A stretch of 64,000 bases of DNA from Terrimicrobiaceae bacterium (GCA_028713285.1 JAQTOP010000008.1:1572-65571); one strand, 5' to 3'. Positions 26,971-63,826 are shown, numbered from the stretch's first letter. Notes: generated by a model from the sequence alone, not told the origin. Numbers and translations are program-made.

Positions 26971-28662
26971 TCAGGCTTCCGCTCCCCGCGGCGAGGTTTT
27001 GACGAACAATCCGCTGCAGCCGGATGCGCCGATGAATCGGGCATGACCGGACTCCGCCCATTCGAGCGCGGCCTGTCTTACGCCGTAGCTGCCGTCGTCG
27101 TTTTCGGGATTCAAAAAATCGTGGAAGAGCACCGGCACCCCGGCGTCGAGCATGCGGGTGAGCATTTCGCAATCGGCCTTCACACCCTCGTAACGATGAT
27201 CGCCATCGACAAAGACCATCGTTGGCGAAATCGGATACGCGGCAAAAAACTCCTCGAGATTGCCCTGGAAGAGACGCGCATACGGCGTGAGTTTCCATGC
27301 GGCAAGCGTGTCGAACGTGCGCCGGATGGACTCGCTGCTGATATCCACGCCGTAGAAAAAAGTGCGGCCCTCGCGGGCGGGATTCGCCAGGGCGCCGAGG
27401 ATTTCGCAAACCGCCGAGCGGCCGCCGTAGGTGCCGATCTCGAGAACCAAGTCGCCGGAGTGATACGCGAGTTCGTATTGCTTGAACGAATCGCCGTCCA
27501 TCGCCCAGCCGGGCACGTCCTTCGTGCGGTCGAAAATCCCTTCATGCCCGGCGTCGATGAATGTCTGCTCGCGGCGATAGGAAGGGCGGAAAATGGCGCC
27601 GCCGCTCCTGCATTCATCCGGGTATTCGATCTCCGGGGCGGCGATTTTTCCGCCGGAAGCGCGGCCGCCATTCTTGCGAAAGAAGCAGCACGCCGTGACC
27701 TGCGGCCAGCTTCCGCCGGCGGAGGCTTCGGTGACGTAATCAAAATATGGCCTGGCGAACTGGTCGAGCTTCTCGATCAACGCCATCGGATACGACATGC
27801 AATATTGCAGATAGCTGCGGAAGAATTCGTAGAAATCGTATTTGCCGATGTGCCTGCCGGAATCCATCGACGCCTCCTGGAAGCTCTGGTTGACATAGAA
27901 CCGGCTGCTCATCCCCAGATCGGCGGCGACATTTGCAAGCTCCGCCAGATCGAAAAGGTGCTTGTCCTCCCACGTGGATTTGTCGAGGTCGCGCCGGTGA
28001 TAGCGCCCCATCGTTCTGGCGAATGCTTTCAACAGCCTGGCCTCCTCCGGCTCGAGCGATACTTTGGCGACCTTCGCAAGGCCGGGCAGCGTGTCGGCGA
28101 GCGCGCCCATGAGCAGATAGCCCTGGGCGCACGGTTCCTGCACGGCGAGGACTCCTCCCGGCAACAGGACGCGCGCGCATTCGCGCAGGAAGGCGGGAAC
28201 GTCGAGAATGTGATGCAGAGTCGAGCGCAGGGCGATCAGCGAGAAGGTATCCGCGGGCAATCGATCCAGCTCGTCGCCCAGCAAAACCCCGTAGCGAACC
28301 GGCGTCTTTGCATCCGCGCCGAGCGCCTCGATTTTTGACCGGGTAATCGCGAGGAATGCGGGCGACGGATCCGTGAGCAGAATCGCGGGATACCGGCTGG
28401 TTGCCGCAAGCCCCACGGACGCAAGGCCGGTTCCGCATCCGATCTCCAGAGCCGGGCCGGTATCCACGCCGCCGCATTCGATCGCCGCGGCAACGAGGCC
28501 GAAACCTGTCTCCAGGTCCCGCGGATTCACGCAATATTGCGTGTCGTATGCGCCCTCCTCGTGCGCGTAGGCGCGCGGCGACGAAATTGCCGCAAACCCG
28601 TCCGTCTGGGGCGTGGCATCCAGCCAGGCGCTGTAGGAATTCATTGTGTCACTCATCAGCAT
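26971..28662 (-). CDS. Dual-domain SAM-dependent methyltransferase (class I MTase plus Methyltransf_24/CmcI-like)
   Basis: N-terminal domain: ALEIGCGTGLASVGLAA ... LLPGGVLAVQEP. C-terminal domain: VLEIGTYGGRSAVCEILGAL ... VFVDGDHRYEGVKADCEML...VLFHDF. Confidence 0.75.
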   Translation of the reverse strand: MLMSDTMNSYSAWLDATPQTDGFAAISSPRAYAHEEGAYDTQYCVNPRDLETGFGLVAAAIECGGVDTGPALEIGCGTGLASVGLAATSRYPAILLTDPSPAFLAITRSKIEALGADAKTPVRYGVLLGDELDRLPADTFSLIALRSTLHHILDVPAFLRECARVLLPGGVLAVQEPCAQGYLLMGALADTLPGLAKVAKVSLEPEEARLLKAFARTMGRYHRRDLDKSTWEDKHLFDLAELANVAADLGMSSRFYVNQSFQEASMDSGRHIGKYDFYEFFRSYLQYCMSYPMALIEKLDQFARPYFDYVTEASAGGSWPQVTACCFFRKNGGRASGGKIAAPEIEYPDECRSGGAIFRPSYRREQTFIDAGHEGIFDRTKDVPGWAMDGDSFKQYELAYHSGDLVLEIGTYGGRSAVCEILGALANPAREGRTFFYGVDISSESIRRTFDTLAAWKLTPYARLFQGNLEEFFAAYPISPTMVFVDGDHRYEGVKADCEMLTRMLDAGVPVLFHDFLNPENDDGSYGVRQAALEWAESGHARFIGASGCSGLFVKTSPRGAEA

Positions 28663-29375
28663 AAAATCTCGTCGAGGATGAGATAAATTCCCTCCTCCGC
28701 TTCAATCCGGTCGATCCAGGCGCCCTGCTCGGGGCTGAGATGGCGCTGCCAGTCTCCCATCACGCCCTTTCGAAAAAAGCGCTTCTCCTCCGGCACGGCG
28801 GGACCGCTGAGCTTCGAAAACTGCGTGTTGCTGCGGGCGGTCTGAATGTCGCGCACCGTCAATTCTCTCCCGAGAAACCGTCCGAGCCGCAGCACCTCGT
28901 CTTCAAAACAGGTGTGCAGCTTTTGATAGGTCGTGAAAAAAATTGCATCCTCGACGCCCCGATTGTCCCAATACAAATGGTAGCGCGTCAACTGGCGGAC
29001 GAGGCTCTCGCCGCGCCGCTCGAAAAACTCCTCGATCGTGCCGTCGAACTGCCCAAGTCGCCGAAAATGGAAGTAAGCCGACACCACGACATCCTTCGGG
29101 TCGCGATAGACGTTGAGAACCTTCACCCCCGGCGTCGCCAGGAGCAGCGGGCGCACTTCGTCCTCGGGCTTGTAGTGCGACTTGATGAGGTAGTCGTTCG
29201 TCGCGATGCCGGCCGTGCGCAGGAAGTCACCCATCCGGGACGGCTCGATCGTATTGTTCTTCCATGCCTCGTTCTTGAACTCCGCCGGCACCTCGATGAA
29301 CGTCCCAATCTGCCGCACCACCAGGGTAAGCCAGGTCGAACCGCTTTTGAACGCTCCGTTGCTTACGATCAGCAT
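28656..29375 (-). CDS. PAPS-dependent sulfotransferase
   Basis: MLIVSNGAFKSGSTWL (5-prime-PSB) and VLNVYRDPKDVVVSAYFH (3-prime-PB). Confidence 0.85.
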   Translation of the reverse strand: MLIVSNGAFKSGSTWLTLVVRQIGTFIEVPAEFKNEAWKNNTIEPSRMGDFLRTAGIATNDYLIKSHYKPEDEVRPLLLATPGVKVLNVYRDPKDVVVSAYFHFRRLGQFDGTIEEFFERRGESLVRQLTRYHLYWDNRGVEDAIFFTTYQKLHTCFEDEVLRLGRFLGRELTVRDIQTARSNTQFSKLSGPAVPEEKRFFRKGVMGDWQRHLSPEQGAWIDRIEAEEGIYLILDEILC

Positions 29376-29394: not shown

Positions 29395-30267
29395 TCAGGC
29401 GCTCCAGCGTTCGATGACCAGCGGCATTGCGGCCCGAACCAGAACCAGACCGATGAGCAGCATCACGAGCATGAGCGCCATCACGCCAAAAAATTGGGGC
29501 AACACCGTCAAGGACTCGCCCGCCACCAATTGCCGGGTCGTCATGACCAGATAGCTCATCGGATTCAGCCGCGCGACCAGTGCGTAAACACCGCCGGGAG
29601 GAAGGTGCTTCGCCGCGAACACGGTCGGCGTCACGACGAGCCACCCCTTCTCGATGATGGGAATGGCGAGCGCGATATCCCGGTAAAGCAGTCCGATGGG
29701 CATGACCAAAAGTCCGACCGCCGTTCCGAATGCCGCCACGCCGATCAGGGCCGGTATCCCCATCAGCGTGGTCGGGGTAAACGGGAGACGAAACCAGAGG
29801 AAGGCGAAGAAGATCAGCACGATCTGCAAGGCCATGGTGATGCCAAGTTTCACCATACTGGAAAGAATGATCGCCTCGGGCGGCACGACCACCTTGGTCA
29901 GCACGCTGCGGTAGCTGCCGACGACCTGGAGCGGCCCGCTGACCGCCGTGGCGAAAACCTGCCAGATGGACACCCCGATCAGGATGTAGGCGCCGTTGGG
30001 AATCTTCGCCGTGCCGAAATTGACGAGGTCATTTTGTTGCGCGACCGTGAGGCCGACGGCGATCACGATCGGCGGCGCCAGAATCCAGAACAGCCCGAGC
30101 AGCGACTGCCGATACTGCGAACGCAAATCGCGGACCGCGAGAATGATCGCGAGCTGGCGGCTGCCGACAATGTCGCGCCACATCATTCGCAGCAGCTTCG
30201 ACGGGCGCAGCAGCGTGCTCTCCGCGCCGTATTCGTGGGTCTGCAGATGTCCGCTTTCCAGGCTCAT
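29395..30267 (-). CDS. wzm: ABC-2 type polysaccharide export permease (Wzm/TagG/KpsM class)
   Basis: ILAVRDLRSQYRQSLLGLFWILAPPI is the hallmark N-terminal ABC-2 motif. About 6 TM helices, 290 aa. Confidence 0.85.
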   Translation of the reverse strand: MSLESGHLQTHEYGAESTLLRPSKLLRMMWRDIVGSRQLAIILAVRDLRSQYRQSLLGLFWILAPPIVIAVGLTVAQQNDLVNFGTAKIPNGAYILIGVSIWQVFATAVSGPLQVVGSYRSVLTKVVVPPEAIILSSMVKLGITMALQIVLIFFAFLWFRLPFTPTTLMGIPALIGVAAFGTAVGLLVMPIGLLYRDIALAIPIIEKGWLVVTPTVFAAKHLPPGGVYALVARLNPMSYLVMTTRQLVAGESLTVLPQFFGVMALMLVMLLIGLVLVRAAMPLVIERWSA

Positions 30268-30321: not shown

Positions 30322-31782
30322 TCAATGCGACCTCGCGCGGCCGCCCCTTCCGAGCCGCCGAAGCATTTCGTCGCGCAATCTGACCCGCATGGGCGTGGAT
30401 TTTTCCCGCCAAAGCTCCTCGGCAAGCGACTCGGCGCGGTGCGTCGCCTCCGCGACCTTTTCCTTGAGCCGCAGCCGATCCTCGCCGGCCTTCTCACGCG
30501 CCAGCCGCGCGCGCTCGGTCCATTGCTCCCTCAGTGCGTCCAGTCGCCGCCGCAGATATTCGTTCTGCGTCTGCAGGTGATCCAGGTGCAGGAGCGGGTG
30601 CTTCCTGATCTCGTCTTCGGGATCATAACCCGACCAGCCTGCGCGGACGCCTGCGGAGCGACGGCGACATTCGATCGCTTCGCGACAGATCTCGATCAGG
30701 CTGTAGGCCCAGCGCTTCCCCCGTTCCCGCTCGAGCTGGAGACTGGCCCGTTCGGCCTCCACGCCCGACCAGCCACCGCACGACCAGTCAATCTCCTGCA
30801 GGTGCCCTGCCAGGGGACCGGCGTCGTAGCATGGGAAGAAAAACGCTCCCGGCGCCTGCTCGCGATTGGACTCTATATCCGAACAAGCCACGCGCTTGCC
30901 GAGGGCGAGGGAATCCTCGATCGTCGTGTTCCATCCCTCGAATCGCGAGGGTTGCACGACCTCGATCGCGCAGCGCATCAGCGCGATGAGGTCCGGCAGC
31001 GGCACCTCGCCCAGCACGCTGATATTCTGAAAGAGCTTTTCCACCGAAAGCCTTCCGAACAATTCCGAGATGTGGGAATTACGCGGATCGCGCGTGTCGT
31101 TCGGGACTCCGACCATCACGACATGCACATCGGGTCGCAACCGCCGGGCGAGTGCGACCGCCTCGACAACCAGCCGATGGTTCTTGTGCTTCCAGAACTG
31201 ATTCGCAACGAGGACAAACGCCCGCGGCAAACCGTATTTGCCGGAGACGAACCGCGGATCGCCTTCCGTCATGCCGCGGGCGTAGGCGAAACTCGACGGA
31301 AAATGCGCGCAGCCGCTCGCCCCTGCATATGATGGATACAATGCCCGGAAATCGGCGAGTACGGCTTCGCTCGAAAACATCATCGCGTCGCAGTTGTCCA
31401 CCAGATATCCGAAGTAGCGGTCGCGCTGCGAGAGTTCCTCGTCGCTGAAATACTCCGGCAGGTGGCGATGCTGGAAATCCGGTATCCAGCCGACCAGCGC
31501 GCAGGCCGTCTGCGGAAGCAGCGCCTCGGTGACCGGGAGCAGCACGTCGAGCCCATGCGCCTCCACCGCCTCCTGGATGTGCGTCAGCGAAACGACATCG
31601 GCGTCGAAGCGAATCGCCTTCGCTCCCGCCGGCAATTCCGCAAGCGAACTTGTGCGTCCGCCAAGGACATGCACCTCGCAATCCGCAATCGACGCGTTCG
31701 CGAGCGCATGGACCATGCTGCGCGTGTAGCTCGCGCCCGCAGTCCAGTTCGCCTGCGTCCGGTCGAGGAAACCGATCTTCAT
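30322..31782 (-). CDS. Glycosyltransferase family 1 with a C-terminal coiled-coil extension of about 90 aa
   Basis: GT1 core: VVQPSRFEGWNTTIEDSLALGKRVACSDI. Tail (nt 30322-30600): HLDHLQTQNEYLRRRLDALREQWTERARLAREKAGEDRLRLKEKVAEATHRAESLAEELWRE. ATGA overlap at 31779-31782. Confidence 0.75.
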   Translation of the reverse strand: MKIGFLDRTQANWTAGASYTRSMVHALANASIADCEVHVLGGRTSSLAELPAGAKAIRFDADVVSLTHIQEAVEAHGLDVLLPVTEALLPQTACALVGWIPDFQHRHLPEYFSDEELSQRDRYFGYLVDNCDAMMFSSEAVLADFRALYPSYAGASGCAHFPSSFAYARGMTEGDPRFVSGKYGLPRAFVLVANQFWKHKNHRLVVEAVALARRLRPDVHVVMVGVPNDTRDPRNSHISELFGRLSVEKLFQNISVLGEVPLPDLIALMRCAIEVVQPSRFEGWNTTIEDSLALGKRVACSDIESNREQAPGAFFFPCYDAGPLAGHLQEIDWSCGGWSGVEAERASLQLERERGKRWAYSLIEICREAIECRRRSAGVRAGWSGYDPEDEIRKHPLLHLDHLQTQNEYLRRRLDALREQWTERARLAREKAGEDRLRLKEKVAEATHRAESLAEELWREKSTPMRVRLRDEMLRRLGRGGRARSH

Positions 31783-32663
31783 CCCACGCGAATGCCGAAT
31801 GCCACGCCGTAGCCCAGGCTGGCATACTCGTGGGTGCGAATCGGGAACGGGGCCTCGGAGATCGCCTGCCGCCAGATCGCCCGCAGGTTCGGATGCTGCG
31901 GATGGCTGATGTCGTCGAAGATGACCACGCCGCCCACATCGAGTCGCGGCAGCACGTCGCGCAAATCCTGCAACGCGCCTTCGTCGCTGTGGTCACCATC
32001 CACCGTCACCATCGAAAGCTTCCGCTCCGGCTGTCCGGCGAAGAACTTCGGCAGCGTCACATGGCTGTCGCCATCGACAAATTCCGCCGTTCCCGAGTGG
32101 CCGATCCTGCGCAACTCGGAGCGGACAAAATCCGGTCCCGGGTTTTCCATTCCGGCGTAATCCGCCATCCACATGTCGAAACCGAACAGCGCGCATTTTC
32201 GCGCGGCGGCCGCAGCCGTGGCCATGCTGCGGCCCCGGCGCACGCCGATCTCCAGATAGCTCACGGGCTGCAAAAGCAAGGCTGCCGCCGCAACGACATC
32301 GACGATGTCCAGGTAGTGCCAGCATTCGCCGAATTTGCGCTCTCCCTCCCGGCGGAACTCGGAAATATACCGCGAATAGGCGTCGGGGGTGAGCCGCGCA
32401 AACATCCGCCGCACGAATCGGCGGCATGCGCCCGAGTGGGCAAATGCCACGATGGTTTCCGGATCCACGAGCACCGGATTATACCACCCCCCAAGGGCCT
32501 CATGCCTGGTGAATACCCCGCGATTGGTCGTCATCGAACAGGAGTGGTCGGCCGGAATTCCGGGCCACTGGCAATGCTGGAATTCCGGATTCCCGGACAG
32601 ATCGAATCGCGTCCGCCGCTGACGGACGTGGCGACAGATAAACGGTTGCAAATACCGCCGCAT
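31779..32663 (-). CDS. Class I SAM-dependent methyltransferase (Methyltransf_24-like)
   Basis: YLEIGVRRGRSMATAAAAA ... VTVDGDHSDEGALQDLRDVLPRLDVGGVVIFDDI. The start is uncertain: 32663 or ATG 32534. Confidence 0.65.
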   Translation of the reverse strand: MRRYLQPFICRHVRQRRTRFDLSGNPEFQHCQWPGIPADHSCSMTTNRGVFTRHEALGGWYNPVLVDPETIVAFAHSGACRRFVRRMFARLTPDAYSRYISEFRREGERKFGECWHYLDIVDVVAAAALLLQPVSYLEIGVRRGRSMATAAAAARKCALFGFDMWMADYAGMENPGPDFVRSELRRIGHSGTAEFVDGDSHVTLPKFFAGQPERKLSMVTVDGDHSDEGALQDLRDVLPRLDVGGVVIFDDISHPQHPNLRAIWRQAISEAPFPIRTHEYASLGYGVAFGIRVG

Positions 32664-32695
32664 GTCCGCTGGAATGAAGTCACCATCGATTCCGA

Positions 32696-32929
32696 TTATC
32701 CGGCCGTCGTCTTGCTTCCGATCACATCGATAAACTGCCGGAGACTTAGAGTTTCCAGCGTCTCCTCATCGCTAAATCTGATCCCAAACTCCTCCTCCAG
32801 GGCCAGGATCAGATTCATTTGCCTCAGGGAATCCCACTCTTCAATCGTTTCCGAGCTTGAGTCGTCTCCAATTTGCGATTCCTCGATTCCGAAGACCGAG
32901 GCCATCACCCGCTTAATTCTGGTTTCCAT
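32696..32929 (-). CDS. Acyl carrier protein
   Basis: 77 aa with IEEWDSLRQMNLILALEEEFGI. The DSL serine is in the usual helix-2 context of phosphopantetheine attachment. Confidence 0.8.
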   Translation of the reverse strand: METRIKRVMASVFGIEESQIGDDSSSETIEEWDSLRQMNLILALEEEFGIRFSDEETLETLSLRQFIDVIGSKTTAG

Positions 32930-34667
32930 ATCGAATGCTTATGTAATGTAAATTCCTGGGTTGATAGACGTCCAATTCCAACCGGTAATTCCTGACTGTC
33001 TGCGTGGATTCCATGGTCTGAAATCCGACCCTCTCATAAAAATCGATCACCTGGTTGTTTTTTTGCGTCTGAATGTAGGTTGCCTCGACGGCTTCGATTC
33101 CCGCGTCTTTCATAAAGGGAATCAGAAAATCGAAGAAGGCCAATTCGATATTACGTCCAATCGTCCGGCAACTCATCAACAGCGTATCGATCGTTGCACT
33201 CCCTGCATCCACCCCGCGACAAACGATGCACAATCCCACCAGTCCATATCCGCCAAACTTATCAGCCACGGAAAAGGAGACTACTGAGTCGGACCGGCTG
33301 TCGATGAAGTTCCGAATGTCCGCTTCGGTGTATCGTTTGGTCGTGAGATTGAATTGGTTTGTCTTCTGCGTCAGTTGGGCAAGGCGCGGCGCGTCCCTGA
33401 TCTCGTCAATGGCAATTGAAACACCCAACTGCAGCGAGGCGAGATATTCCTCGACGTTTTGAAACGCCGAAATTCCCGCCTTGCGTTCGATTTCGCGCTG
33501 ATACATCGCCCCTCGTTCGGCATCCTCCTTCGAGAGGACACCGGAATAAAAGAGCCGCGAAGTCTTCCTCAGCAGTTCAGGATAATCATGCAGACTTTCA
33601 GGAACCCGGACGGCCAGCACCTCCGGCATACCGCTCCGGACCCGCTCAATCTCAAAATCCGAATCATCAATAAACACCAGGCTGTTCAGTCCGATATTCA
33701 AGTCCCGGGCGATCGCCGCAAGATTGGATGCTTTGTCTTCCCAATTGATCCTTTTAATTGCAATCGAGGCATCGCGCAGGCAGGCATCGGGGTGATTCTC
33801 GATGACATGATTCACATCATCGAGGTTATTCTTGCTGCACAACCCGATCAAAACTCCCTTCCGGCTCAACTCGACCGCGATTTGCTGGATTTCTTCGAAT
33901 ATCGCGCCGGCTTTTGACCTCGCGGACATTTCGATGCCGTCAAACCCGTCTTCTCCGAGCACCCCCTTCCAGAGTGTATTATCGCAGTCGAAGATAAGCG
34001 CCTTCCTGGCTTTCCCCGCCACCGATTGGATGATCGCGCCGCAATAGTCCGCATAAGCTCTAAAGAATTCAATCGAGTACAGGGATTTCGAAGAATAAAA
34101 AAATCTGAAATCCACCGCTTTCGATACGGACATCGACGCAAGGATCTTTTCGACATCGACGAGGAAAAGATTGCTGCATGCGTCTTCCTTCGCCGTCAGG
34201 TGGGCATTGAGCTCTTCGCAAATTCGATCGAAGTTATTCCTTCCAATGACATGGTGATTGAATGCCATGCTCGAGAATTGATTGAAGAAAACAAGCGACG
34301 TCCTTGAGAGATTGTTAAGAACAAAGTCAATTTCCGCTTTAACCGCGGAGACCAGGTCCTGAATCTCGACAGCCTCCATTACATTTGCCCTCGCTTGCAG
34401 CAAAGGTCTAATGTTGCAAGCCTCCCAAAATACGATGACCAAATCCGCTTCTCGAAACTTTAGAGAATCCTGCGGGATGTTGTCGTAGTCACCCGAAGAA
34501 ACTCTGGCGTGGATTCCCGCCCGTCGAAGCGGATGCTCGAAAATAGCGTTCAGCTGAGCAACAACGATATTTGACAACACGGCAATTGTGTACGCCGGCG
34601 TGCCTTCCATGCTCTTCCCAAGCAGGGCATTCTCACGCAGAATTTCGCTATAACTCAATCCAGCCAT
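32913..34667 (-). CDS. FkbH-like HAD-IIIC phosphatase/transferase with a C-terminal GNAT-like domain
   Basis: KALIFDCDNTLWKGVLGEDG (HAD motif I, typical of FkbH), LVFIDDSDFE, and a C-terminal FGGYGLVGLCIV...RTIGRNIELAFFDFL...FYERVGFQ. Confidence 0.85.
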   Translation of the reverse strand: MAGLSYSEILRENALLGKSMEGTPAYTIAVLSNIVVAQLNAIFEHPLRRAGIHARVSSGDYDNIPQDSLKFREADLVIVFWEACNIRPLLQARANVMEAVEIQDLVSAVKAEIDFVLNNLSRTSLVFFNQFSSMAFNHHVIGRNNFDRICEELNAHLTAKEDACSNLFLVDVEKILASMSVSKAVDFRFFYSSKSLYSIEFFRAYADYCGAIIQSVAGKARKALIFDCDNTLWKGVLGEDGFDGIEMSARSKAGAIFEEIQQIAVELSRKGVLIGLCSKNNLDDVNHVIENHPDACLRDASIAIKRINWEDKASNLAAIARDLNIGLNSLVFIDDSDFEIERVRSGMPEVLAVRVPESLHDYPELLRKTSRLFYSGVLSKEDAERGAMYQREIERKAGISAFQNVEEYLASLQLGVSIAIDEIRDAPRLAQLTQKTNQFNLTTKRYTEADIRNFIDSRSDSVVSFSVADKFGGYGLVGLCIVCRGVDAGSATIDTLLMSCRTIGRNIELAFFDFLIPFMKDAGIEAVEATYIQTQKNNQVIDFYERVGFQTMESTQTVRNYRLELDVYQPRNLHYISIRYGNQN

Positions 34668-34694
34668 TTATCAATTGCACCCAACAATTCGGGG

Positions 34695-35612
34695 TCACCA
34701 GATGTCGTTCCGTCGCTTTTGCAACACCAAGGCCATGGACCGGGGCAAAAAGCGAAAGTCGGACGGATAGGAACCCGGCGATGCCGAGTAGGTGGATACG
34801 ACGCGAAAGCCGGCGTCTTCCGCCAGTTTGATGATTTCCGATTCGCGTTTGAATTCCGTGATGTGGTCAATTTCAGCGGCGGTTAGCGCCCCCGTTACGA
34901 AAGCATATCCGCCGGGGTTAAGATTGCCGGCGAGGCTCGAAAACAGCAAATCCGGCCGCTCGACATGCTCGAGAAGAAAACAGGAGATCGCAGCGTCGTA
35001 TTGCCCCGCCCCTGTGAACGCCAGCGCGTCCCCGACTATGTAGTTGGTGCGATCCGAGAATCCGATCCTGCGCGTCATGTCAATCGCAAGCTCGACAGAT
35101 TTTTGGCTAATATCCACGCCATCAAGGGTCCATTGCTGCATCCCGTGCAAAAGCAGCAGACCCCAAACGCCCGAACCCGAGCCGAGTTCCAGCAAGGTTC
35201 CTCCCTCATCCGGGAGCACGGGCAGGAAATAGTCCTTGAAAAAGCCGGCGATTTTCAAGTGGTGTTCCCACGCGAAAGTCGTTGTAAAGACTCCCCAGTG
35301 GTAGTTTTGCATGTGATCGGCATTGTTATAAACGCTCTGGTAAACTTCCGCGTAGGTCTTGTTTTTGTATGCACCCCGTTTTTCGTATTCCATCTGCGAC
35401 TTGCCCACATCCAGAACGAAGCTGTTGTATCCGTTGATCAGGACAGACGCGAATTCTTCCGATCCAAGATAATCCGCCGCCCAGCCGACCATAAGGTCGC
35501 CCAGCTCGTCGAACAGGGCCGCGTTCCTTTCGCGATTGGCGAGGACCTTCGGCCCAAAGAGCCGGTTCTTTGCAAACTCCGCGAGGAATATTTTCAGGTT
35601 GGTTGAGATCAT
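34695..35612 (-). CDS. Class I SAM-dependent methyltransferase
   Basis: TLLELGSGSGVWGLLLL (motif I), GVDISQKSVELA, YDAAISCFLLEHV, LNPGGYAFV. Confidence 0.75.
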   Translation of the reverse strand: MISTNLKIFLAEFAKNRLFGPKVLANRERNAALFDELGDLMVGWAADYLGSEEFASVLINGYNSFVLDVGKSQMEYEKRGAYKNKTYAEVYQSVYNNADHMQNYHWGVFTTTFAWEHHLKIAGFFKDYFLPVLPDEGGTLLELGSGSGVWGLLLLHGMQQWTLDGVDISQKSVELAIDMTRRIGFSDRTNYIVGDALAFTGAGQYDAAISCFLLEHVERPDLLFSSLAGNLNPGGYAFVTGALTAAEIDHITEFKRESEIIKLAEDAGFRVVSTYSASPGSYPSDFRFLPRSMALVLQKRRNDIW

Positions 35613-35695
35613 GACTCTTCGTTGGTATTAATGACTGTTTGCCAATCCTTGGGTGGAAAATACCGATGCCCGCAATAGTCGGCAGGCCGACCGGT

Positions 35696-36364
35696 TCATT
35701 CAGAGGGAAGCTTTCCCATCACTCTTGCAGGATTGCCCATGAGGATTGAAAAAGGCGGCGCATCGCTCATCACCACACTTCCCGTGGACACGATGGAGCC
35801 CTTTCCGATGCGCACGCCCCTTAGGATGCTGGAATTGGCATAGATTGCCGCGTAATCTTCGATCACAATGGGCGCGGTTGGGATGTCGCCCTTTTCCGTG
35901 GGATGACCGGTGGCAAATATTCGTTTAACGCCTTCCGCCCGGGTTATGTAGTGCGTTTCGTGAGCAAAGTCGATGATGTTCACATTGTGGGCAACACCGA
36001 CGCAATCGCCCATGACGATACTGTCCCCTGACCAGACCCGGGTGCCTTCGCCGATGTAACATCCCTCACCGATCTCTATTTTCCCACCGTAAGCAAAGAC
36101 GGTGAGCTCGCCCCGAATATGGGTGTTTTTGCCAACACGAACAGACGCTGGATTTTGCTGCAAATTGACGACCCTGGCGGATTCATAGAACCGGGCCGAA
36201 TCGGCGACGCTCGCCCCTTTGTAACACCTGCCAGCCTTCACTTGATCGAGTTGAGCTTCGATGAATTCAAAATCGATCAGATTTGCATCGACCAACTTCA
36301 GAAGGAGTCGCGTCGCCCGCCTCTTCAGCATGCGTTTGATGTTTTCCATCTTTCTTCTGAACAA
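35696..36364 (-). CDS. Hexapeptide-repeat (left-handed beta-helix) acyl/acetyltransferase
   Basis: VGKNTHIRGELTVFAYGGKIEIGEGCYIGEGTRVWSGDSIVMGDCVGVAHNVNII ... IEDYAAIYANSSILRGVRIGKGSIVSTGSVV shows the hexapeptide periodicity. Confidence 0.85.
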   Translation of the reverse strand: MFRRKMENIKRMLKRRATRLLLKLVDANLIDFEFIEAQLDQVKAGRCYKGASVADSARFYESARVVNLQQNPASVRVGKNTHIRGELTVFAYGGKIEIGEGCYIGEGTRVWSGDSIVMGDCVGVAHNVNIIDFAHETHYITRAEGVKRIFATGHPTEKGDIPTAPIVIEDYAAIYANSSILRGVRIGKGSIVSTGSVVMSDAPPFSILMGNPARVMGKLPSE

Positions 36365-36430
36365 AGTATCGTTAACTTGCAGGCAGCCTTTTCCGCCTTG
36401 CTTTGGAAGGCCCGGTCTCGCGGTCTGTGT

Positions 36431-37324
36431 TCATATTCGTTGTTCAAGCGCAGGCTCGCCGGCCTGTGCAGGTTCCAAGGGCTTCATCGCAAAGAACGAA
36501 AAGATCTCATATCCCTCGCTGCGGGCACGAACCGCGCCGGCGTCGTGCCGGACGCCCTCCACGAAGGGCGCAGGGTAGGTGTTGATGACCGAATCGGGCG
36601 GCGCCAGCACTTTTCTCAGGGTCAACTCCGCGTTGACGAACGCGAGGAGGTATTCGTCGAGATAGTAGCAATTCTCGTCCTTCGTGATGAAGTTCAGCGG
36701 GTGTTTGGCGAAAAAATCCGCGCGCTGGCTCTCGTTCCAGATCACCACGTCCCGCAGGCAGCAAACCACCCCGCCCGGCTTCAAAATCGTCCGGATTTGC
36801 CGAAGGAATTCCACGAGGGAATGAATATGGTGCAGCACCTCGCGGATATAGACCACGTCGAAGGAATTGGGCTCGATGTCGAGCTTCTCGCCGGAGTGAA
36901 AGCGAAAGTTGACCTTCACGCCGTCGAGGCCGTTCAACTTCTTTGCCGCGCCGAGGCCGGCAAGCAGCCCGGCTGAGGAATCCATGCCCGTGACGTTGAA
37001 TCCCTCTCGAGCGAAGGCGTAACTCGCCACGCCGTTGCCACAGCCAAAATCGAGCACCTTGCTGGATGGAGAGGGGGCGACGCCCAGCGCCGCGAGCATG
37101 GCAAGCAGCGCGCGAAATTCGTCGCTCGCATGGAACCGCCTGGCATTGTCGGGAAAGTCCGGCGTCTTGTAGCAGAGGCGGAGCAGCTCGCGCATGCCGC
37201 CCTCCTCCCATGCCCACAAGTAGGCGCGATCATAGGCATCGTTTTTGTCGATCGCGATCCGGCGGGAGAAAGCGGTGGAGGCCATCTGAAAAAGTCTTTC
37301 GATCATCACGCTAAAGAGACGCAC
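36431..37324 (-). CDS. Class I SAM-dependent methyltransferase
   Basis: KVLDFGCGNGVASYAFAREGFNVTGMD ... FDVVYIREVLHHI ... LKPGGVV. Confidence 0.75.
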   Translation of the reverse strand: MRLFSVMIERLFQMASTAFSRRIAIDKNDAYDRAYLWAWEEGGMRELLRLCYKTPDFPDNARRFHASDEFRALLAMLAALGVAPSPSSKVLDFGCGNGVASYAFAREGFNVTGMDSSAGLLAGLGAAKKLNGLDGVKVNFRFHSGEKLDIEPNSFDVVYIREVLHHIHSLVEFLRQIRTILKPGGVVCCLRDVVIWNESQRADFFAKHPLNFITKDENCYYLDEYLLAFVNAELTLRKVLAPPDSVINTYPAPFVEGVRHDAGAVRARSEGYEIFSFFAMKPLEPAQAGEPALEQRI

Positions 37325-37369
37325 CGTCCGGGCACGATGCTGCGGCAGGCTTGCTTCGCGGGCATCATG

Positions 37370-38767
37370 CTAATCGGTCTCCATGAGGTCGTCGGCGGCT
37401 TCGACGGTGTTCAGGATTTTTTCGGTATGCAGCCGGGCGCCATCATGCGCAACAACGCTCCACGTCCTGCGCTGATAATACTCGCCGGCATTCCATGGAT
37501 CGTCGCACGAGACGAGGAACTGTGCGCTTCGGCGCGCCGCGATGGTGACGCGGATGGGGCGGGAGAATTTGAGGTGGACCTGATAGACACCCTCCCGCAA
37601 ACCGACGCATGCGAGGTCGATGCGCACTTCGTATTCTCCGGGCTGGACCCTGGACAGGCTTCCGCCATCCCGGCGGGAAAGCATCTTCAGCACCTGTCTT
37701 GGTTTCTCATCCAGCTTCATCGCCTCGAGGGAGGGATGGCGATACACAATCGCTGTAAAGTTTAGCTGCTCGATGGGCTGCTTCACCTGGAACCGCGCGA
37801 CGATCACCGCATCCTCACCCGGCTTCACCGGCCCGCCGGTCGCGGACTGCATGTCCACTCCAAGAATTTCCGCCTCATCGGAGGCTTGCTGATCGCCGTC
37901 CTCCGTCTGGTTGACCATCGCCGCCCGATCGCCCTTTTGATCCTCGATCAGGTGACGTTCGTATTGCTGAATCACCGATCCAATGGGCCCGAAGTCCACG
38001 ACTTCTCCGCGGCGCAAATACAACGCGGTTTCCGCAATCGAGAGCAGGATGCTCGGGGAGTGATGCACCATGACGAGGGACATGCCGCTGGAGCGCATTT
38101 CGAAGAGCCGCTCGAGGCACTTCCTGCGAAAATTCATGTCGCCGACGGCCAGCACCTCGTCGAGCAGAAGGATGTCGGGCTGGGTGCTGATGGCGCAGGC
38201 AAAACCCAGCCGCGCCACCATCCCCGAGCTGTAGGTTTGCACCGGCGCATCGATCGCGTAGCCGATCTCCGAGAATGCCACCACGTCGTCGAAGCGGTCC
38301 TTGATCTCCTGGTAGGTCAGCCCGAGGACCGACATGTTCGCGAAGACGTTCTCGCGGCCGGTCAGCACGGGATTGAACCCAGCGCCCAGCGCGAGCAACG
38401 GCGCCAGGCGGCCCCGCACGGTCACCCGCCCGGTGGTGGGCTTGATGAGCCCCGCGACGATGCGCATGAGCGTCGTCTTTCCGCAGCCGTTGATCCCGAC
38501 GATGCCCACCGCGTCACCCGAGCGCAGTTCGAAGTTCACATCCTGCACCGCCCAGAATTCATTTTTGCGCAGGACACCGGCGCGTTGCGAGAGTCCGACG
38601 ACTTCGCGCCCGATGTCCTGGACGCCGTAGAAAAGCGATCGCTTCAAGTCGCGGCAAAAGCGCTTCGAGACATTCTCGAGCGCCAGCACGACGTGCTTCC
38701 CGGAATTGCCATCGGCAGGCGCCGCAGTTTCGGAGGCCGCAGGGTTGATCAGTTCAGATACGTTCAT
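37370..38767 (-). CDS. wzt: Polysaccharide ABC exporter ATP-binding protein with a C-terminal extension of about 200 aa (Wzt-type)
   Basis: Walker A GINGCGKTTL, signature YSSGMVARLGFA, Walker B LLLDEVLAVGD. About 200 aa of beta-rich sequence follow the NBD (ILGVDMQSATGGPVKPGEDAVIVARFQVKQ...YEVRIDLACVGLREGVYQVHLKF). Confidence 0.9.
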   Translation of the reverse strand: MNVSELINPAASETAAPADGNSGKHVVLALENVSKRFCRDLKRSLFYGVQDIGREVVGLSQRAGVLRKNEFWAVQDVNFELRSGDAVGIVGINGCGKTTLMRIVAGLIKPTTGRVTVRGRLAPLLALGAGFNPVLTGRENVFANMSVLGLTYQEIKDRFDDVVAFSEIGYAIDAPVQTYSSGMVARLGFACAISTQPDILLLDEVLAVGDMNFRRKCLERLFEMRSSGMSLVMVHHSPSILLSIAETALYLRRGEVVDFGPIGSVIQQYERHLIEDQKGDRAAMVNQTEDGDQQASDEAEILGVDMQSATGGPVKPGEDAVIVARFQVKQPIEQLNFTAIVYRHPSLEAMKLDEKPRQVLKMLSRRDGGSLSRVQPGEYEVRIDLACVGLREGVYQVHLKFSRPIRVTIAARRSAQFLVSCDDPWNAGEYYQRRTWSVVAHDGARLHTEKILNTVEAADDLMETD

Positions 38768-39734
38768 TGGCAGAAACCATCGTCAATCGTTCGGTCCTCG
38801 CGCCGGGCCGGTCTGCGGTATCCCATGCGGCAACGCACGCCGCCAGCGACTTCGCGAAGGGCCGGGGTTGCCATCCGGGCAAAAGACGCCGCAGCTCCGC
38901 GACGTCCGCCTGCCAGTGCGCGGGATTCCCACGCAGCATCTCGCGTCCGAATACGATCTTCGCCGGGACATCCGCGCAGTCCCGCACGGCTTCGGCGACG
39001 TCACGCACGGCGACACTCGCACCCGACGCCATGTTCACGGCGCGAAAACCGGGCAGCCGTCCGGCGGTCATCGCCTTCACCACGCCGATTGTGGCAGCCG
39101 CCGCTTCGTCCTCCGCGAGAAAATCCCGCCGCTCATCGCCCGTTCCCTTCAATCGCAACTCCGGCATCCCGGCCCGCAATTGGTCGAAGATCTCCCACAC
39201 GAGCAATCGGCGCTGGCGGGGACCGAAGACCGAGAAAAATCGCAACGAGACGATGGACAGACCGAAGCAGCAGGCAAACTCGACGCCCATCTGTTCCGAG
39301 AGCAGCTTGTGAAATCCGTAAGGGGACTCGGGCTGGCACGCCGCGGCCTCCGATATCGGAAGCTCCACCGGCGAGCCATACACCGCGGCGCTGGATGCGA
39401 GCGCGACCATGGGCCGCCGCCCGGAACGCCGGATCGCCTCCAGCACGCGAAACCACAAGCTCGCGGAAGCTTCGAAATCCTGGAGCGGCGCCGCGAACGA
39501 CTCGCCGACCGAGGCGGCGCCGGCAAAGTGCAGCACGCAGTCCGGATCCTCTTCGCGCATCACGGCCGCCAGCGTGTCGGGCGAGGAAAAATCCACGGAG
39601 CGATAGTCGCCGGGCCAGGCCGGCGGCGGAGTTGCCGCGCGGCCGATCGCGACGACTTCGCATCCCGCGTCGGACGCCGCGCGACCGACCGCGCCGCCGA
39701 GGAAGCCGGAAGCGCCTGTGATCACGCATTTCAT
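38754..39734 (-). CDS. NAD-dependent epimerase/dehydratase (extended SDR)
   Basis: MKCVITGASGFLGGAVGR (GxxGxxG), SPYGFHKLLSE (YxxxK). ATG at 39734 in an ATGA overlap with the nadE stop. The rest of the 798-aa track ORF is an artefact overlapping nadE. Confidence 0.85.
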   Translation of the reverse strand: MKCVITGASGFLGGAVGRAASDAGCEVVAIGRAATPPPAWPGDYRSVDFSSPDTLAAVMREEDPDCVLHFAGAASVGESFAAPLQDFEASASLWFRVLEAIRRSGRRPMVALASSAAVYGSPVELPISEAAACQPESPYGFHKLLSEQMGVEFACCFGLSIVSLRFFSVFGPRQRRLLVWEIFDQLRAGMPELRLKGTGDERRDFLAEDEAAAATIGVVKAMTAGRLPGFRAVNMASGASVAVRDVAEAVRDCADVPAKIVFGREMLRGNPAHWQADVAELRRLLPGWQPRPFAKSLAACVAAWDTADRPGARTERLTMVSANERI

Positions 39735-41704
39735 TGGCCGGACACCTCCTCCGCCAGCGCATCGACTTCGGCCAGCCATGCGGCGGCGCTGGCATCGCTG
39801 GGCATGCGCCAGTCGCCGCGCGGCGAGAGCGCGACCGTGCCGACCTTCGGGCCGTCGGGCATCGCCGAACGCTTGAATTGATTCGCAAAAAATCTTCCGA
39901 CGAACACGCGCAGCCAGCGGAGCAACTCGACTCGCGGGTGGCGGCCGTCGAATGCCATCTCGGCGAGCGCGAGGATTTTCGCGGGGCGGAATCCGCAGCG
40001 CACCATCTGGAACAGGAAGAAATCGTGGAGTTCGTAGGGGCCGACCGTTTCCTCGGTCTTCTGCACGAGACCCGCGTCCGGATCGAGCGGCAGGAGCTCG
40101 GGAGTGATCGGGGTGGCCGCGATATCGAGCAGCAGCCCGCGAATCGGCTCGGCAAACTCCTCCTCCGCGCACCACTCGACCAGATGCCGCACGAGCGTCT
40201 TCGGCACGCCGGCGTTCACGTGATACATCGACATGTGATCGCCGTTGAAGGTACACCAGCCGAGCGCCGCCTCGGAAAGATCGCCCGTGCCGACGACGAT
40301 GCCGCCGCATTGATTCGCGATGTCCATCAAAATCTGCGTGCGCTCCCGGGCCTGCGCGTTTTCGTAGGTGGGATCGTGCAGTCCCGCCGGGTGCCCGATA
40401 TCCGCAAGGTGCCGATCCACGGCCGGACCGATGGGAATCACGCGGGACGATACGCCCAGCGCGGCAGTCAGCGCCGTGGCGTTGTCTTGCGTGCGGTCCG
40501 TGCTGCCCGGGCCGGGCATGACCACGGCGATCAGGTCGGCCGGGCCGCGCCCGAGCTTCCCGAGGGCGCGCACCCCGACGAGCGCCGCGAGGGTGGAATC
40601 GAGCCCGCCCGAGAGCCCGAGCACCAGCTTCGCCGATCCCGTATGCAGCAGACGCCGCGCGAGGCCCGTCGATTGAATCGAAAAGATTTCCCGGCAATTT
40701 TCCGCGCGCCGGCCGGCATCGTCGGGAACAAATGGACGCGGCGGCACGGGACGGCGCAGCGCGATCTCGCGTGTCGCGGAGGCGCCGCCGAGCGTGAAGC
40801 GGACGCGGCGGAACCCACTCTCGCCCGCCGCCGAGAAGCTGCTGTTCTGCAGGCGTTCGTGGGTCACGCGCTCGAGATCGAAGTCTGCCGTCACCGCATC
40901 CGTCTCGAACGAAAATGCCCGCGTCTCGGCCAGGACGATTCCGCACTCGGCAAGAATCCCGTGCCCGGAGGATACGAGGTCGGTGCTCGATTCCCACGGT
41001 CCGGCGGCGGCGTAGGCGTAGGCCGCCAGGCAGCGGGCGGACTGCTGGCGCACGAGGTCGCGGCGGTAGGCGGCCTTGCCCAGCAACTCGTCGCTGGCAG
41101 AGGGATTGAGAATGAGGGTGGCTCCGGCGAGCGTGAGCCGCCCGCTGCACGGTTCAACGGCCCACAAGTCCTCGCAGATTTCAAGGCCGATGCAGGCATG
41201 CGGGCGATCCGTCGCCTCGAATAACAGGTCGGCCCCAACCGGCACGAGCGCGCCATCCAGCAAAACGGTCTCGCGCCCGAGCGCTCCAGCGCGCGAAAAC
41301 CAGCGCTCCTCGTAGTATTCCTGCGAATTCGGCAGATAAGTCTTCGGCACGATGCCGCACACGACGCCGCCCGCCACAAGCGCGGCGCAATTGAAAAGCC
41401 GCCCGTCGATTTCCAATGGCAATCCGACGACTGCCGCGATGGCATGGTCGTGCGTCGCTTCCGCAACCCGGAGCAACGCAGCCACCGCGGCGAGTTGGAG
41501 CGTTCGTTGAAAGAACAGGTCGCCGCAGGTGTAGCCCGTGAGGCACATCTCGGGAAAAAGAGCGACGGCGCAGTCGTCACCCGCAAGCCGGTCGATGGCC
41601 TCGATGACGCGCGCCGCATTGAACGCCGGGTCGCCGACGCGCAACTCGGGCGCGACCGACGCCACGCGCAGGTAGCCGAAATCCGCATGTTCACGGGCGT
41701 TCAT
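39731..41704 (-). CDS. nadE: Glutamine-dependent NAD+ synthetase (N-terminal CN-hydrolase domain plus synthetase domain)
   Basis: LRVASVAPELRVGDPAFNAARV...ALFPEMCLTGYTCGDLF...IGLEICEDLW is the nitrilase-type domain. LVLGLSGGLDSTLAA is the PP-loop SGGxDS motif. 657 aa. Confidence 0.9.
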   Translation of the reverse strand: MNAREHADFGYLRVASVAPELRVGDPAFNAARVIEAIDRLAGDDCAVALFPEMCLTGYTCGDLFFQRTLQLAAVAALLRVAEATHDHAIAAVVGLPLEIDGRLFNCAALVAGGVVCGIVPKTYLPNSQEYYEERWFSRAGALGRETVLLDGALVPVGADLLFEATDRPHACIGLEICEDLWAVEPCSGRLTLAGATLILNPSASDELLGKAAYRRDLVRQQSARCLAAYAYAAAGPWESSTDLVSSGHGILAECGIVLAETRAFSFETDAVTADFDLERVTHERLQNSSFSAAGESGFRRVRFTLGGASATREIALRRPVPPRPFVPDDAGRRAENCREIFSIQSTGLARRLLHTGSAKLVLGLSGGLDSTLAALVGVRALGKLGRGPADLIAVVMPGPGSTDRTQDNATALTAALGVSSRVIPIGPAVDRHLADIGHPAGLHDPTYENAQARERTQILMDIANQCGGIVVGTGDLSEAALGWCTFNGDHMSMYHVNAGVPKTLVRHLVEWCAEEEFAEPIRGLLLDIAATPITPELLPLDPDAGLVQKTEETVGPYELHDFFLFQMVRCGFRPAKILALAEMAFDGRHPRVELLRWLRVFVGRFFANQFKRSAMPDGPKVGTVALSPRGDWRMPSDASAAAWLAEVDALAEEVSGQ

Positions 41705-53136: not shown

Positions 53137-53347
53137 CAATGAAGGATTCCACCGAATGAGGAGACCCGGCCGATGAGCAAAGCCGGTCGCAAGTTCTTCT
53201 GCGGGTTTTCGCCCGCGAAAGATGCGAACGGCCAGCCCGCCGGCGCAGCGATCATTAAACTCAAACCACGCAACGCATATGAACTGCTTGGACTTCGAAG
53301 ACCCGCTCGACCTGCTCTTGGAAAATTCTGAGCCCGCGCCCGGCTGC

Positions 53348-54268: not shown

Positions 54269-54651
54269 ACGCCACGCTCAATCGCCCGCGTACCCGCGCA
54301 ATCAATCCGCTCCAGCTCTCCCGCGTCTTCGCGTTTCTCCTCCTCGCCCTCGTGGTCGGCGGCGCGGGCCTTTGCTTTGTCTCGCTCAAAAACACCCAGC
54401 ACGCCCTCGGCGAACGCGTGCGCGAAACCGAGCGGCAGCTTCGCGAATTCCGCGCCCGCAATCAGGACTACCAGAGCCGCATCGCCAGCCTCTCGTCCCG
54501 CGTGGCGCTGCGCCGCAAGCTCGAATCCGGATTCATTGCGATGATTCCCGTGCCCGCCACGGCCATTGCCCGTCTCACACCGCCCGCCATCGCGACCGAG
54601 GATGGAGCGATGCGCACCGCCGCCGTCATCAACCCTCTTCTACGTCCGTGA
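54265..54651 (+). CDS. ftsL: FtsL-like cell-division protein (bitopic, coiled coil)
   Basis: Position between rsmH and ftsI. TM segment VFAFLLLALVVGGAGLCFV, then RETERQLREFRARNQDYQSRIASL. ATGA overlap with the rsmH stop. Confidence 0.6.
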   Translation: MNATLNRPRTRAINPLQLSRVFAFLLLALVVGGAGLCFVSLKNTQHALGERVRETERQLREFRARNQDYQSRIASLSSRVALRRKLESGFIAMIPVPATAIARLTPPAIATEDGAMRTAAVINPLLRP

Positions 54652-57913: not shown

Positions 57914-57914
57914 A

Positions 57915-61716: not shown

Positions 61717-61785
61717 CCTTTCCATCCACCCTTCACAAATCATCCACCAAACGCCGTCCACGCAAAACCCAACGCCAGCCGAACC

Positions 61786-62637: not shown

Positions 62638-62641
62638 CCTC

Positions 62642-63808: not shown

Positions 63809-63826
63809 CGGGTTAGATATGGAATT

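Follow-up and report, generated by a model that had tools for sequence, protein, structure and literature searches.

A low-GC FkbH–acyl carrier protein cassette in a variable slot of a Verrucomicrobial glycan locus, with a proposed role in glyceroyl decoration

Among the systems that build acyl groups from a glyceryl unit, the DH*-KR*-FkbH-ACP loading modules of trans-acyltransferase polyketide synthases (PKSs), such as those for bryostatin (BryA) and FR901464, convert glyceryl bound to an acyl carrier protein (ACP) into lactyl-ACP. A surface glycan with a related substituent is found on the flagellin of Campylobacter jejuni NCTC 11168, where pseudaminic acid carries 2,3-di-O-methylglyceric acid (PMC7099621; PMC3068675; bioRxiv 10.64898/2026.04.20.719630). 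In C. jejuni 12664, whose flagella lack the di-O-methylglyceroyl group, the fkbH-domain gene cj1302 is uniquely a pseudogene (PMC7099621). Experiments have linked only cj1295 to the modification, and a role for cj1302 has not been demonstrated (PMC3068675). Our literature search on cj1298-cj1304 found no functional study. As annotated, the C. jejuni locus also contains ACP, methyltransferase, and acetyltransferase-like genes. Here, we describe a set of genes with a similar makeup in a 64-kb stretch of DNA from a Terrimicrobiaceae bacterium (GCA_028713285.1, JAQTOP010000008.1:1572-65571), hereafter the window, in which an FkbH gene and an ACP gene lie with a hexapeptide acyltransferase gene and two methyltransferase genes inside a large locus for an exported glycan. 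We put at about 0.6 the probability that four of these genes form a module of horizontal, low-GC origin, held in a variable slot of the locus, that provides a strain-specific (di-)O-methylglyceroyl decoration.

The FkbH protein of the window shares its core features with FkbH, OzmB, and the enzymes of tetronate biosynthesis. These are an FkbH domain above the profile cutoff, the DxD motif, a conserved and probably equivalent Cys in the C-terminal domain, and an adjoining small ACP, along with a predicted chemistry that would turn 1,3-bisphosphoglycerate into glyceryl-ACP. The gene (32913..34667, minus strand) encodes 584 amino acids (aa) in an N-terminal alpha/beta domain, a HAD-IIIC domain, and a C-terminal GNAT-fold domain. 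It matches TIGR01686 with 262.3 bits over residues 220-550 (curated cutoff, 146.65) and the HAD-SF-IIIC model TIGR01681 with 59.9 bits (cutoff, 35.75). In an alignment of 28 sequences, D227 and D229 of HAD motif I (F226-D227-C228-D229-N230-T231) are invariant and S278, K279, D334, and D335 are conserved too. The triad S499-C500-R501, located in the GNAT-fold domain, is likewise invariant across the 28 homologues. C500 probably corresponds to the catalytic Cys of OzmB and FkbH. Loss of the catalytic Asp and Cys residues, a prospect raised when the locus was first read from its sequence, is not seen, as D227, D229, and the probable catalytic C500 are all present. The adjacent ACP gene (32696..32929, minus strand; 77 aa) overlaps the FkbH stop codon and encodes an EEWDSL phosphopantetheine-site motif, including the serine of DSL (Pfam PP-binding, E 2e-7).

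There are also clear departures from the polyketide systems. The window gene sits in a glycan-export operon and not in a PKS cluster, it is accompanied neither by FkbK/FkbI-type dehydrogenases nor by a FabH-like tetronate-forming enzyme, and its product presumably goes to a sugar instead of a polyketide. Furthermore, it belongs to a long form of ~580 aa with an extra ~215 aa at the N terminus, as in BF1531 of Bacteroides fragilis, the only relative with a solved structure (3SLR). The AlphaFold model (predicted local distance difference test score, 82) has three domains. The N-terminal and HAD domains superpose on 3SLR with a Foldseek TM score of 0.85 (sequence E 4e-36), and the C-terminal 180 residues, including C500, adopt a GNAT fold according to Foldseek. 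3SLR itself is a structural-genomics entry of unassigned function, and its construct lacks the C-terminal GNAT/Cys domain.

The other genes of the set are transcribed from the same strand, in the order nadE, epimerase, wzt, MT297, hexapeptide, MT305, FkbH, ACP, MT24, GT1, wzm, sulfotransferase, and two-domain methyltransferase, all minus. MT305 (34695..35612, minus strand) is a class I S-adenosylmethionine (SAM) methyltransferase matching Pfam Methyltransf_23, 25, 12, and 11. Its start codon is uncertain (the NCBI version has 265 aa), and its orthologues adjoin FkbH in loci L001, L087, L088, and L089 (59-77% identity). The left-handed beta-helix hexapeptide acyltransferase (35696..36364, minus strand; 222 aa; likely start ATG at 36349; Pfam Hexapep) has orthologues of 50-69% identity that directly adjoin MT305-FkbH-ACP in the same four loci. 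A 55% identical copy in L057 lies near its FkbH gene, with a dehydratase/reductase gene in between. Partial NCBIfam matches of this protein are to the WcaF, WbbJ, and galactoside O-acetyltransferase types, with a weak match to LpxA, and its matches in the PDB are SACOL2570, WlbB, and QdtC. The longest matches are to O-acetyltransferase types, and N-acetyltransferases were matched as well. Finally, MT297 (36431..37324, minus strand; Methyltransf_11, E 3e-20; GC3, the G+C content at third codon positions, 0.77) is a second class I SAM methyltransferase. Its identity to the L001 orthologue is 72% but drops to 32-34% for the second methyltransferase in each of L087, L088, and L057. Profile matches confirm the gene content given in the sequence-only reading, namely an FkbH, a WDSL ACP, a hexapeptide protein, and two methyltransferases.

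Our results reveal a compositional island that covers four of the five genes. The host is a metagenome-assembled genome of the Verrucomicrobiota, for which the 64 kb of host sequence served as the composition reference; in a homology search, the window FkbH matched a protein of a Terrimicrobiaceae metagenome-assembled genome at 100% identity. Between 32690 and 36900, G+C content is 52.6%, compared with 64.5% in the remaining window. Among 13 non-overlapping, equal-sized windows outside the island, mean G+C is 0.646 with a standard deviation (SD) of 0.013, which places the island ~9 SD lower. In a sliding-window scan the island is the global minimum, a single deep trough in a profile that is otherwise even at 62-69%. 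The GC3 values of FkbH (0.60), the hexapeptide acyltransferase (0.62), the ACP (0.65), and MT305 (0.69) compare with 0.795 ± 0.044 (minimum, 0.69) for the 38 other window genes of at least 200 aa. G+C is reduced at first and second codon positions (GC1 and GC2) too, codon-bias distance is raised, and over the island the tetranucleotide signature, after Markov correction, has a correlation of only 0.40 with the remaining sequence, compared with 0.59-0.83 elsewhere.

The edges of the island are equally well marked. Maximum-likelihood change-points fall at 32634, between the ACP and MT24 genes, and at 36513, ~80 nt within the 3' end of the MT297 gene. Because GC3 is flat and host-like across the thirds of MT297 (0.77, 0.80, and 0.74), the G+C step belongs at the hexapeptide/MT297 junction, with no useful shift inside MT297. 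The island proper therefore spans 32634..36513, a 3.9-kb segment of four genes with a G+C of ~0.50-0.54 compared with 0.64, delimited by change-points, GC, GC3, codon bias, and tetranucleotides. The compositional island is genuine and is confined to these four genes. In the sequence-only reading, a lower-GC island between GC-richer flanks had been proposed from hand counts on single 60-nt lines. Both parts hold up, with 64.5% in the rest of the window and 42/60 on the line at 37081, and so do the counts for the lines at 34081 (25), 35941 (29), and 36661 (28); the line at 33001 has 27, not 28. Its five-gene foreign unit shrinks to four, as MT297 (36431-37324) is compositionally native, and we rejected its placement of the right-hand shift inside that gene on the grounds of the flat GC3 profile and a change-point that barely enters the 3' end. 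Within the 64-kb window, an absence of compositional deviation, which that reading had considered, is not what we observed.

The island occupies most of a larger segment whose content varies among relatives. We read the gene contexts of five loci from a Wzt search (L083, L084, L085, L086, and the JGI locus P0128) and of L001 from an FkbH search. The Wzt homologues at 58-74% identity number 17, several of them labelled Chthoniobacterales. The order NadE-epimerase-Wzt followed by variable genes was found in six of six syntenic relatives, most of which have BipA-SUI1-hypothetical-M10-hypothetical before it. On the other side, the downstream frame of (MT24)-GT1-Wzm-sulfotransferase plus a ~1030-aa protein, which has no or weak glycosyltransferase matches, is present in L001, L083, and L086, where the DNA extends far enough. 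When the window was compared by blastn with L083, L084, L085, and L086, homology to L083-L085 was unbroken through wzt to ~37380, and DNA homology to L083 resumed at window position ~32486. These limits define a hypervariable slot of 4.9 kb from wzt to MT24 (32487..37380), in which MT297 is included and the low-GC island is the inner 3.9 kb.

Slot content differs widely from one relative to the next. The window and L001 contain MT297-hexapeptide-MT305-FkbH-ACP. The slot of L083 (11472-16808) holds genes for NeuB, a CMP-transferase, a polysialyltransferase-like protein, and a hexapeptide protein; that of L084 (8625-17720) holds a complete pseudaminic-acid-type pathway; and that of L085 (11428-20696) holds another nonulosonic-acid-like pathway. 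The P0128 locus has several methyltransferases and a desaturase, and L086 has only a long hexapeptide protein and one methyltransferase. The nonulosonic-acid genes in the slots of L083-L085 include NeuB, CMP-transferase, and PseB/C/F/G/H/I-like genes, which suggests that ABC-exported polymers of Verrucomicrobia may bear sialic-acid-like residues.

The FkbH cassette is thus present in one of the six syntenic relatives (L001) and absent from L083, L084, L085, L086, and the P0128 locus. Between the window and L001, identity is 54-81% for the cassette proteins and 49-82% for the flanking genes. Of the relatives, L001 is if anything the furthest removed, its Wzt ATPase domain being 79.5% identical to that of the window compared with 83-88% for the others. 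Because the cassette is carried by the most distant relative, its distribution is patchy relative to the frame. The best explanation is that the segment downstream of wzt is a serotype-determining, hypervariable slot. We found no tRNA gene in the 64-kb window, flanking repeats that were only short and at chance level, no integrase or transposase among the window genes scanned, and nothing beyond chance in promoter and terminator scans around the island. We infer that cassettes are exchanged by homologous recombination in the conserved flanks.

Comparison with more distant loci points to where the module came from. A search with MT305 returned a protein of 89% identity, P0241, encoded on a contig of 1.4 kb and known from this MT305 homologue alone, and one of 77% identity in L089. 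The L089 locus (1-3659) reads epimerase-hexapeptide-MT305-FkbH, without wzt or MT297 in between, an arrangement that differs from that of the window. Its cassette proteins are 64-77% identical to those of the window and are encoded at a GC3 of 0.86-0.88, like its flank. In L001, cassette GC3 is 0.69-0.74, compared with 0.80-0.85 in the flanks. In a neighbor-joining tree of MT305, (window, P0241), L089, and L001 form one clade, and in this neighbor-joining analysis the sister group and surroundings of the Verrucomicrobial clade are proteins of low-GC amino-acid composition. Outside the phylum, L087 (33% GC) and L088 (44% GC) carry the order hexapeptide-MT305-FkbH-ACP-methyltransferase-epimerase-GT1. 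Identity to L087 is 64, 65, 49, and 59% for the four island genes and only 31-32% for MT297, the epimerase, and GT1. Since only the four island genes are highly similar, the high-similarity unit coincides with the compositional island.

To place these loci in a wider frame, we surveyed the best 80 of at least 592 confirmed FkbH matches in species-representative genomes, reading neighbors within 6 kb. Across 78 loci, the FkbH genes nearest to that of the window have 23-48% GC, and more distant ones in high-GC genomes reach 62-72%, so the protein does not force a low G+C content. The nesting of the cassette clade in low-GC lineages indicates a horizontal origin. A search of a plasmid collection yielded FkbH homologues of at most 35% identity and neither donor nor vector. 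These comparisons support the view that the module entered the Verrucomicrobial family horizontally from low-GC bacteria, before the present carriers diverged. The best explanation for its later history is that it was afterwards carried or exchanged within the family, its origin being foreign and its arrival not recent. Horizontal acquisition, as proposed from sequence at the outset, is therefore upheld by composition, by the variable slot, and by phylogeny, but the cassette is neither recent nor private to the window, given the orthologous copies in L001, L089, and P0241. That reading had also allowed that relatives might carry the same cassette at the same composition. This applies in part to L001, where the cassette has the same place and a G+C dip, but not to L089, where its composition is host-like.

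What the cassette makes can be proposed from its gene content. FkbH would take 1,3-bisphosphoglycerate, form and dephosphorylate a glyceryl-S-Cys500 intermediate, and load the glyceryl onto the phosphopantetheine arm of the neighboring ACP. MT305 would then O-methylate the ACP-tethered glyceryl, and MT297 may add a second methyl. The hexapeptide acyltransferase would take the (di-)O-methylglyceroyl group off the ACP and attach it to a sugar of the glycan while the latter is growing or lipid-linked, and Wzm/Wzt would export the decorated polymer. A MaoC-dehydratase/short-chain dehydrogenase/reductase (SDR) fusion that accompanies FkbH elsewhere is absent from the window, L001, L087, and L088, and therefore the glyceryl skeleton is probably kept. 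The product is likely mono- or di-O-methylglyceroyl-ACP, and the co-inherited hexapeptide enzyme is the likely transferase. Two other products were considered and rejected for the window cassette: methoxymalonyl-ACP, for which the required dehydrogenases are absent, and lactyl-ACP, for which the dehydratase/reductase fusion is absent.

An argument can be made against this account of the cassette on several grounds. Every catalytic step has been drawn from homology and gene neighborhood. The hexapeptide enzyme is of a generic left-handed beta-helix type whose best solved relatives use acetyl-CoA, and such a gene lies near FkbH in a low share (21 of 78) of the surveyed loci. MT297, at 32-34% identity to the second methyltransferases of other modules, could instead methylate a sugar. 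Our Pfam and NCBIfam gene scans of the window locus found no sugar aminotransferase, and 33 of the 78 other loci have a DegT aminotransferase beside FkbH. With regard to descent, the FkbH proteins of the window and L001 are 54% identical, hardly above the 52-53% seen with other phyla, and the cassette neighbors of FkbH are 67-81% identical between the two (L001 FkbH at 10001-11737). Residues 91-180 of the L001 protein diverge from every homologue compared; sliding identity found no mosaic or recombination breakpoint inside FkbH, only this one fast-evolving segment. Lastly, a single ancient acquisition does not account for a GC3 of 0.60-0.69 in the window and 0.86-0.88 in L089. The window copy is the least ameliorated, and the simplest idea is that it was imported later from a member of this clade with lower G+C.

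Taken further, that idea becomes the strongest of the alternatives. The window copy may be a recent recombinational import from a lower-GC clade member that replaced earlier slot content, and not an unameliorated relic of an ancient transfer. We regard this as having a substantial minority chance of being correct. It would explain the sharp compositional edges, the host-like MT297 directly beside the island, and the patchy distribution among equally distant relatives, as well as three copies that span GC3 values of 0.60-0.88 yet form one protein clade. The lack of mobile-element hallmarks also fits homologous exchange via the conserved flanks. Yet no donor has emerged from the sequences compared, the closest MT305 (P0241, 89%) being on its 1.4-kb contig. 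Furthermore, MT297 and the four genes follow one another in L001 as they do in the window, which suggests that all five form a unit.

A second alternative concerns the function of the acyl group. In the sequence-only reading, the position of the cassette beside wzt made it a candidate source of the chain cap. Under this hypothesis, the cassette product would be a non-reducing-end cap that terminates the chain and is recognized by the C-terminal carbohydrate-binding domain of the adjacent Wzt, which we consider unlikely. The cassette does lie directly downstream of wzt, whose C-terminal extension of ~195 aa is distantly Wzt_C-like, with a weak Pfam match below threshold (E 0.004); PF14524 is present in Wzt homologues of 44-47% identity (~90% coverage) and in one at 67%. 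In addition, the slots of relatives hold nonulosonic-acid genes, together with a polysialyltransferase-like gene in L083, that could plausibly supply terminal residues, and the module adjoins Wzm/Wzt in other phyla (L004, L016, L034, L088, and the P0003 locus). If Wzt read the cassette product, however, its C-terminal domain might be expected to follow slot content. We compared 16 close Wzt proteins in 120 pairs. The identity of their C-terminal domains depends linearly on that of the ATPase domains (residual SD, 4.6 points), and the window and L001, which have the cassette in common, deviate from this line by -1.4 points. There is therefore no sign that the binding domain tracks slot content, with the proviso that a few pocket residues could differ unnoticed. 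Specifically, the C-domain is 39% identical between the window and L001, compared with 53-58% between the window and relatives with nonulosonic-acid cassettes. For a shared cap, MT24 and the sulfotransferase, conserved where visible, are the better candidates. The position beside wzt comes with the variable slot and is conserved, and beyond this adjacency the cassette has no support as the source of the cap. The acyl group is most likely a strain-specific decoration and not a signal read by Wzt.

A third alternative is that the hexapeptide enzyme is an ordinary acetyl-CoA sugar acetyltransferase, with glyceryl delivered in some other way or for another end, such as a small metabolite. The acetyl-CoA dependence of its best solved relatives fits this idea, as does the L083 slot, which has a hexapeptide gene without FkbH. 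Similarly, most FkbH loci lack a hexapeptide gene and some have GNAT, FabH-like, or AMP-ligase genes. We nevertheless consider this quite improbable. Close hexapeptide orthologues are always found beside MT305-FkbH-ACP (L001, L087, L088, and L089), our gene scans found no ketosynthase, PKS, or nonribosomal peptide synthetase gene in the window locus that could consume glyceryl-ACP, and the left-handed beta-helix enzymes LpxA and LpxD use acyl-ACP.

The remaining alternative, that the genes are native and owe their low G+C to amino-acid or functional constraint or to selection for weak expression, is very improbable. In its favor, G+C is reduced at all three codon positions, the residues K, N, I, F, and Y are abundant in the FkbH family consensus, the L001 cassette is likewise below its flanks, and O-antigen loci generally lie below genomic G+C. 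Against it, GC3 and the order-corrected tetranucleotide signature deviate too, L089 encodes 64-77% identical proteins at high GC3, FkbH genes of 62-72% GC in other high-GC genomes show that high G+C is tolerated, and the clade nests in low-GC lineages while the cassette is absent from equally close relatives.

Returning to a horizontally acquired module for glyceroyl decoration, our survey indicates that the window cassette is one version of something widespread. Long-form FkbH is found in more than 6,000 proteins at E ≤ 1e-10. The surveyed loci are glycan loci from many phyla, several with Wzm/Wzt, and in ~75 of 80 an ACP gene lies immediately downstream of FkbH. Other neighbors are the MaoC-dehydratase/SDR fusion (49/78), an MT305-like methyltransferase (36/78), a GNAT acyltransferase (19/78), and a FabH-like enzyme (16/78), and some loci carry AMP-ligase genes in place of a hexapeptide gene. 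The fusion protein has ~395-480 aa (e.g., L018 8820-10004 and L057 7600-9018) and, by analogy, may supply glycans with lactyl-type acyl groups. In L001, L087, L088, L057, and the P0003 locus, the module comes with a second methyltransferase. As a separate observation, three loci from Woeseiaceae and Nitrosospira (L051 6538-12363, L052 9015-14429, and L072 5689-11976) combine FkbH-ACP with Glyoxalase_4, hexapeptide, and DegT genes, and L052 and L072 also encode a WbqC-like protein. Judged by gene content, these loci resemble a pathway for N-acylated amino sugars; cultured species include Nitrosospira multiformis and N. briensis.

In searching the literature, we found no paper that assigns the long-form FkbH-ACP pair a function in glycan synthesis. 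We tentatively propose, at somewhat less than even odds, that free-standing long-form FkbH-ACP modules feed a glycolytic C3 unit into bacterial and archaeal surface glycans as acyl decorations. Variants may include those with the MaoC-dehydratase/SDR fusion, with one or two methyltransferases, or with a transferase of the hexapeptide, GNAT, or FabH-like type. Their products could be glyceroyl, mono- or di-O-methylglyceroyl, lactyl, and 2-methoxypropanoyl groups. On this proposal, the window cassette would be the variant without the dehydratase/reductase, decorating an ABC-exported polymer with a (di-)O-methylglycerate that is possibly sulfated by the sulfotransferase of the locus.

The cassette belongs to a ~39-kb, ABC-transporter-dependent glycan locus (640-39734) with at least seven methyltransferase domains. 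Upstream of the slot, in the direction of transcription, are nadE (39731-41704, minus strand) and a frame gene for an NAD-dependent sugar epimerase/dehydratase (38754..39734, minus strand; 326 aa; Pfam Epimerase, E 4e-38). The epimerase gene, which overlaps the nadE stop, is the 3' third of an over-extended 798-aa open reading frame (38754-41150) that is otherwise a shadow frame over nadE. Its orthologues occupy the same position in L001 and L083-L085 (60-69% identity), one was called in L086, and L089 has one too. Wzt (37370..38767, minus strand), a frame gene for the ATPase of the ABC transporter, matches ABC_tran and the TagH and Wzt models of NCBIfam. On the far side of the slot, which separates wzm from wzt, four further frame genes follow on the minus strand: MT24, a Methyltransf_24 O-methyltransferase by Pfam (31779..32534; the reading frame reaches 32663, with conservation from ~M44), which is 74-78% identical in L001 and L083; a Pfam GT1-family glycosyltransferase (30322..31782) with orthologues in L001 and L083 and DNA homology in L086; Wzm, the transporter permease (29395..30267; NCBIfam galactan_ABC_perm, E 4e-13), with orthologues of 73-76% identity; and a sulfotransferase (28656..29375; Sulfotransfer_1, E 8e-26) with orthologues of 59-79% identity. 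Beyond it lies a two-domain methyltransferase (26971..28662, minus strand; Pfam Methyltransf_12 and Methyltransf_24) without an orthologue in L001, which might be a terminal-modifying enzyme of the methyltransferase type.

Past this gene are ~26 kb of glycosyltransferases together with a second sulfotransferase, an FkbM-type methyltransferase, and an Acyl_transf_3 protein. The two sulfotransferases are at 1797-2612 and 28656-29375, an NKWYS-family protein is encoded within the locus too, and the Acyl_transf_3 gene (15380-16573) is on the strand opposite to the locus. Large proteins without a Pfam match are encoded at 3715-5385, 5618-6553, 10897-12894, and 12985-15348. The gene content of the locus points to a polymer that would be heavily methylated and sulfated. 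Elsewhere in the window, the start of the dcw cluster (mraW, ftsI, probable murE, murF, and mraY) lies on the plus strand at 53222-64000, a region with higher GC3 (0.81-0.88) and a strongly negative GC skew. Upstream of it are genes for an AcrB-type efflux pump and the corresponding membrane-fusion protein (48145-52499), as well as bipA (44362-46173).

Swappable cassettes of low G+C are nothing unusual in polysaccharide loci, and the interest of our findings lies in a common, unstudied FkbH-ACP glycan module. In this genome, the island pinpoints the cassette that determines the serotype of a large glycan locus. In Verrucomicrobia, a soil phylum with little study so far, loci of this O-polysaccharide-like kind diversify through the exchange of cassettes in one fixed slot, like the O-antigen loci of enterobacteria. 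Assigning a role to the FkbH-ACP pair would explain a class of glycan substituents and link central glycolysis to the decoration of the cell surface. If the C3 route that we propose is true, it would also provide the di-O-methylglyceroyl group of Campylobacter with the genetic basis that it has lacked so far.

Set against described systems, the locus as a whole resembles O-antigen loci of the ABC-dependent type, with which it shares the wzm/wzt frame, a slot with serotype-specific genes, a dip in G+C, patchiness, and the lack of mobile hallmarks. It differs in that the host is Verrucomicrobial, the slot splits wzt from wzm, and the alternative cassettes of relatives are nonulosonic-acid pathways. 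The DH*-KR*-FkbH-ACP modules have the same activities that occur as free-standing proteins beside FkbH-ACP in 49 of 78 glycan loci; the window variant, in contrast, should keep both glycerate hydroxyls, and the lactyl analogy concerns the wider family only. With C. jejuni, the window shares an fkbH-domain gene in the locus and, on our account, an O-methylated glycerate on a surface glycan. The acceptor in C. jejuni is the amine of a nonulosonic acid on a glycoprotein, whereas the window encodes an ABC-exported polymer in a locus where no aminotransferase was found. With that difference in mind, the di-O-methylglyceroyl-pseudaminic acid of C. jejuni can reasonably be taken, by analogy, as the closest precedent for what the cassette would make.

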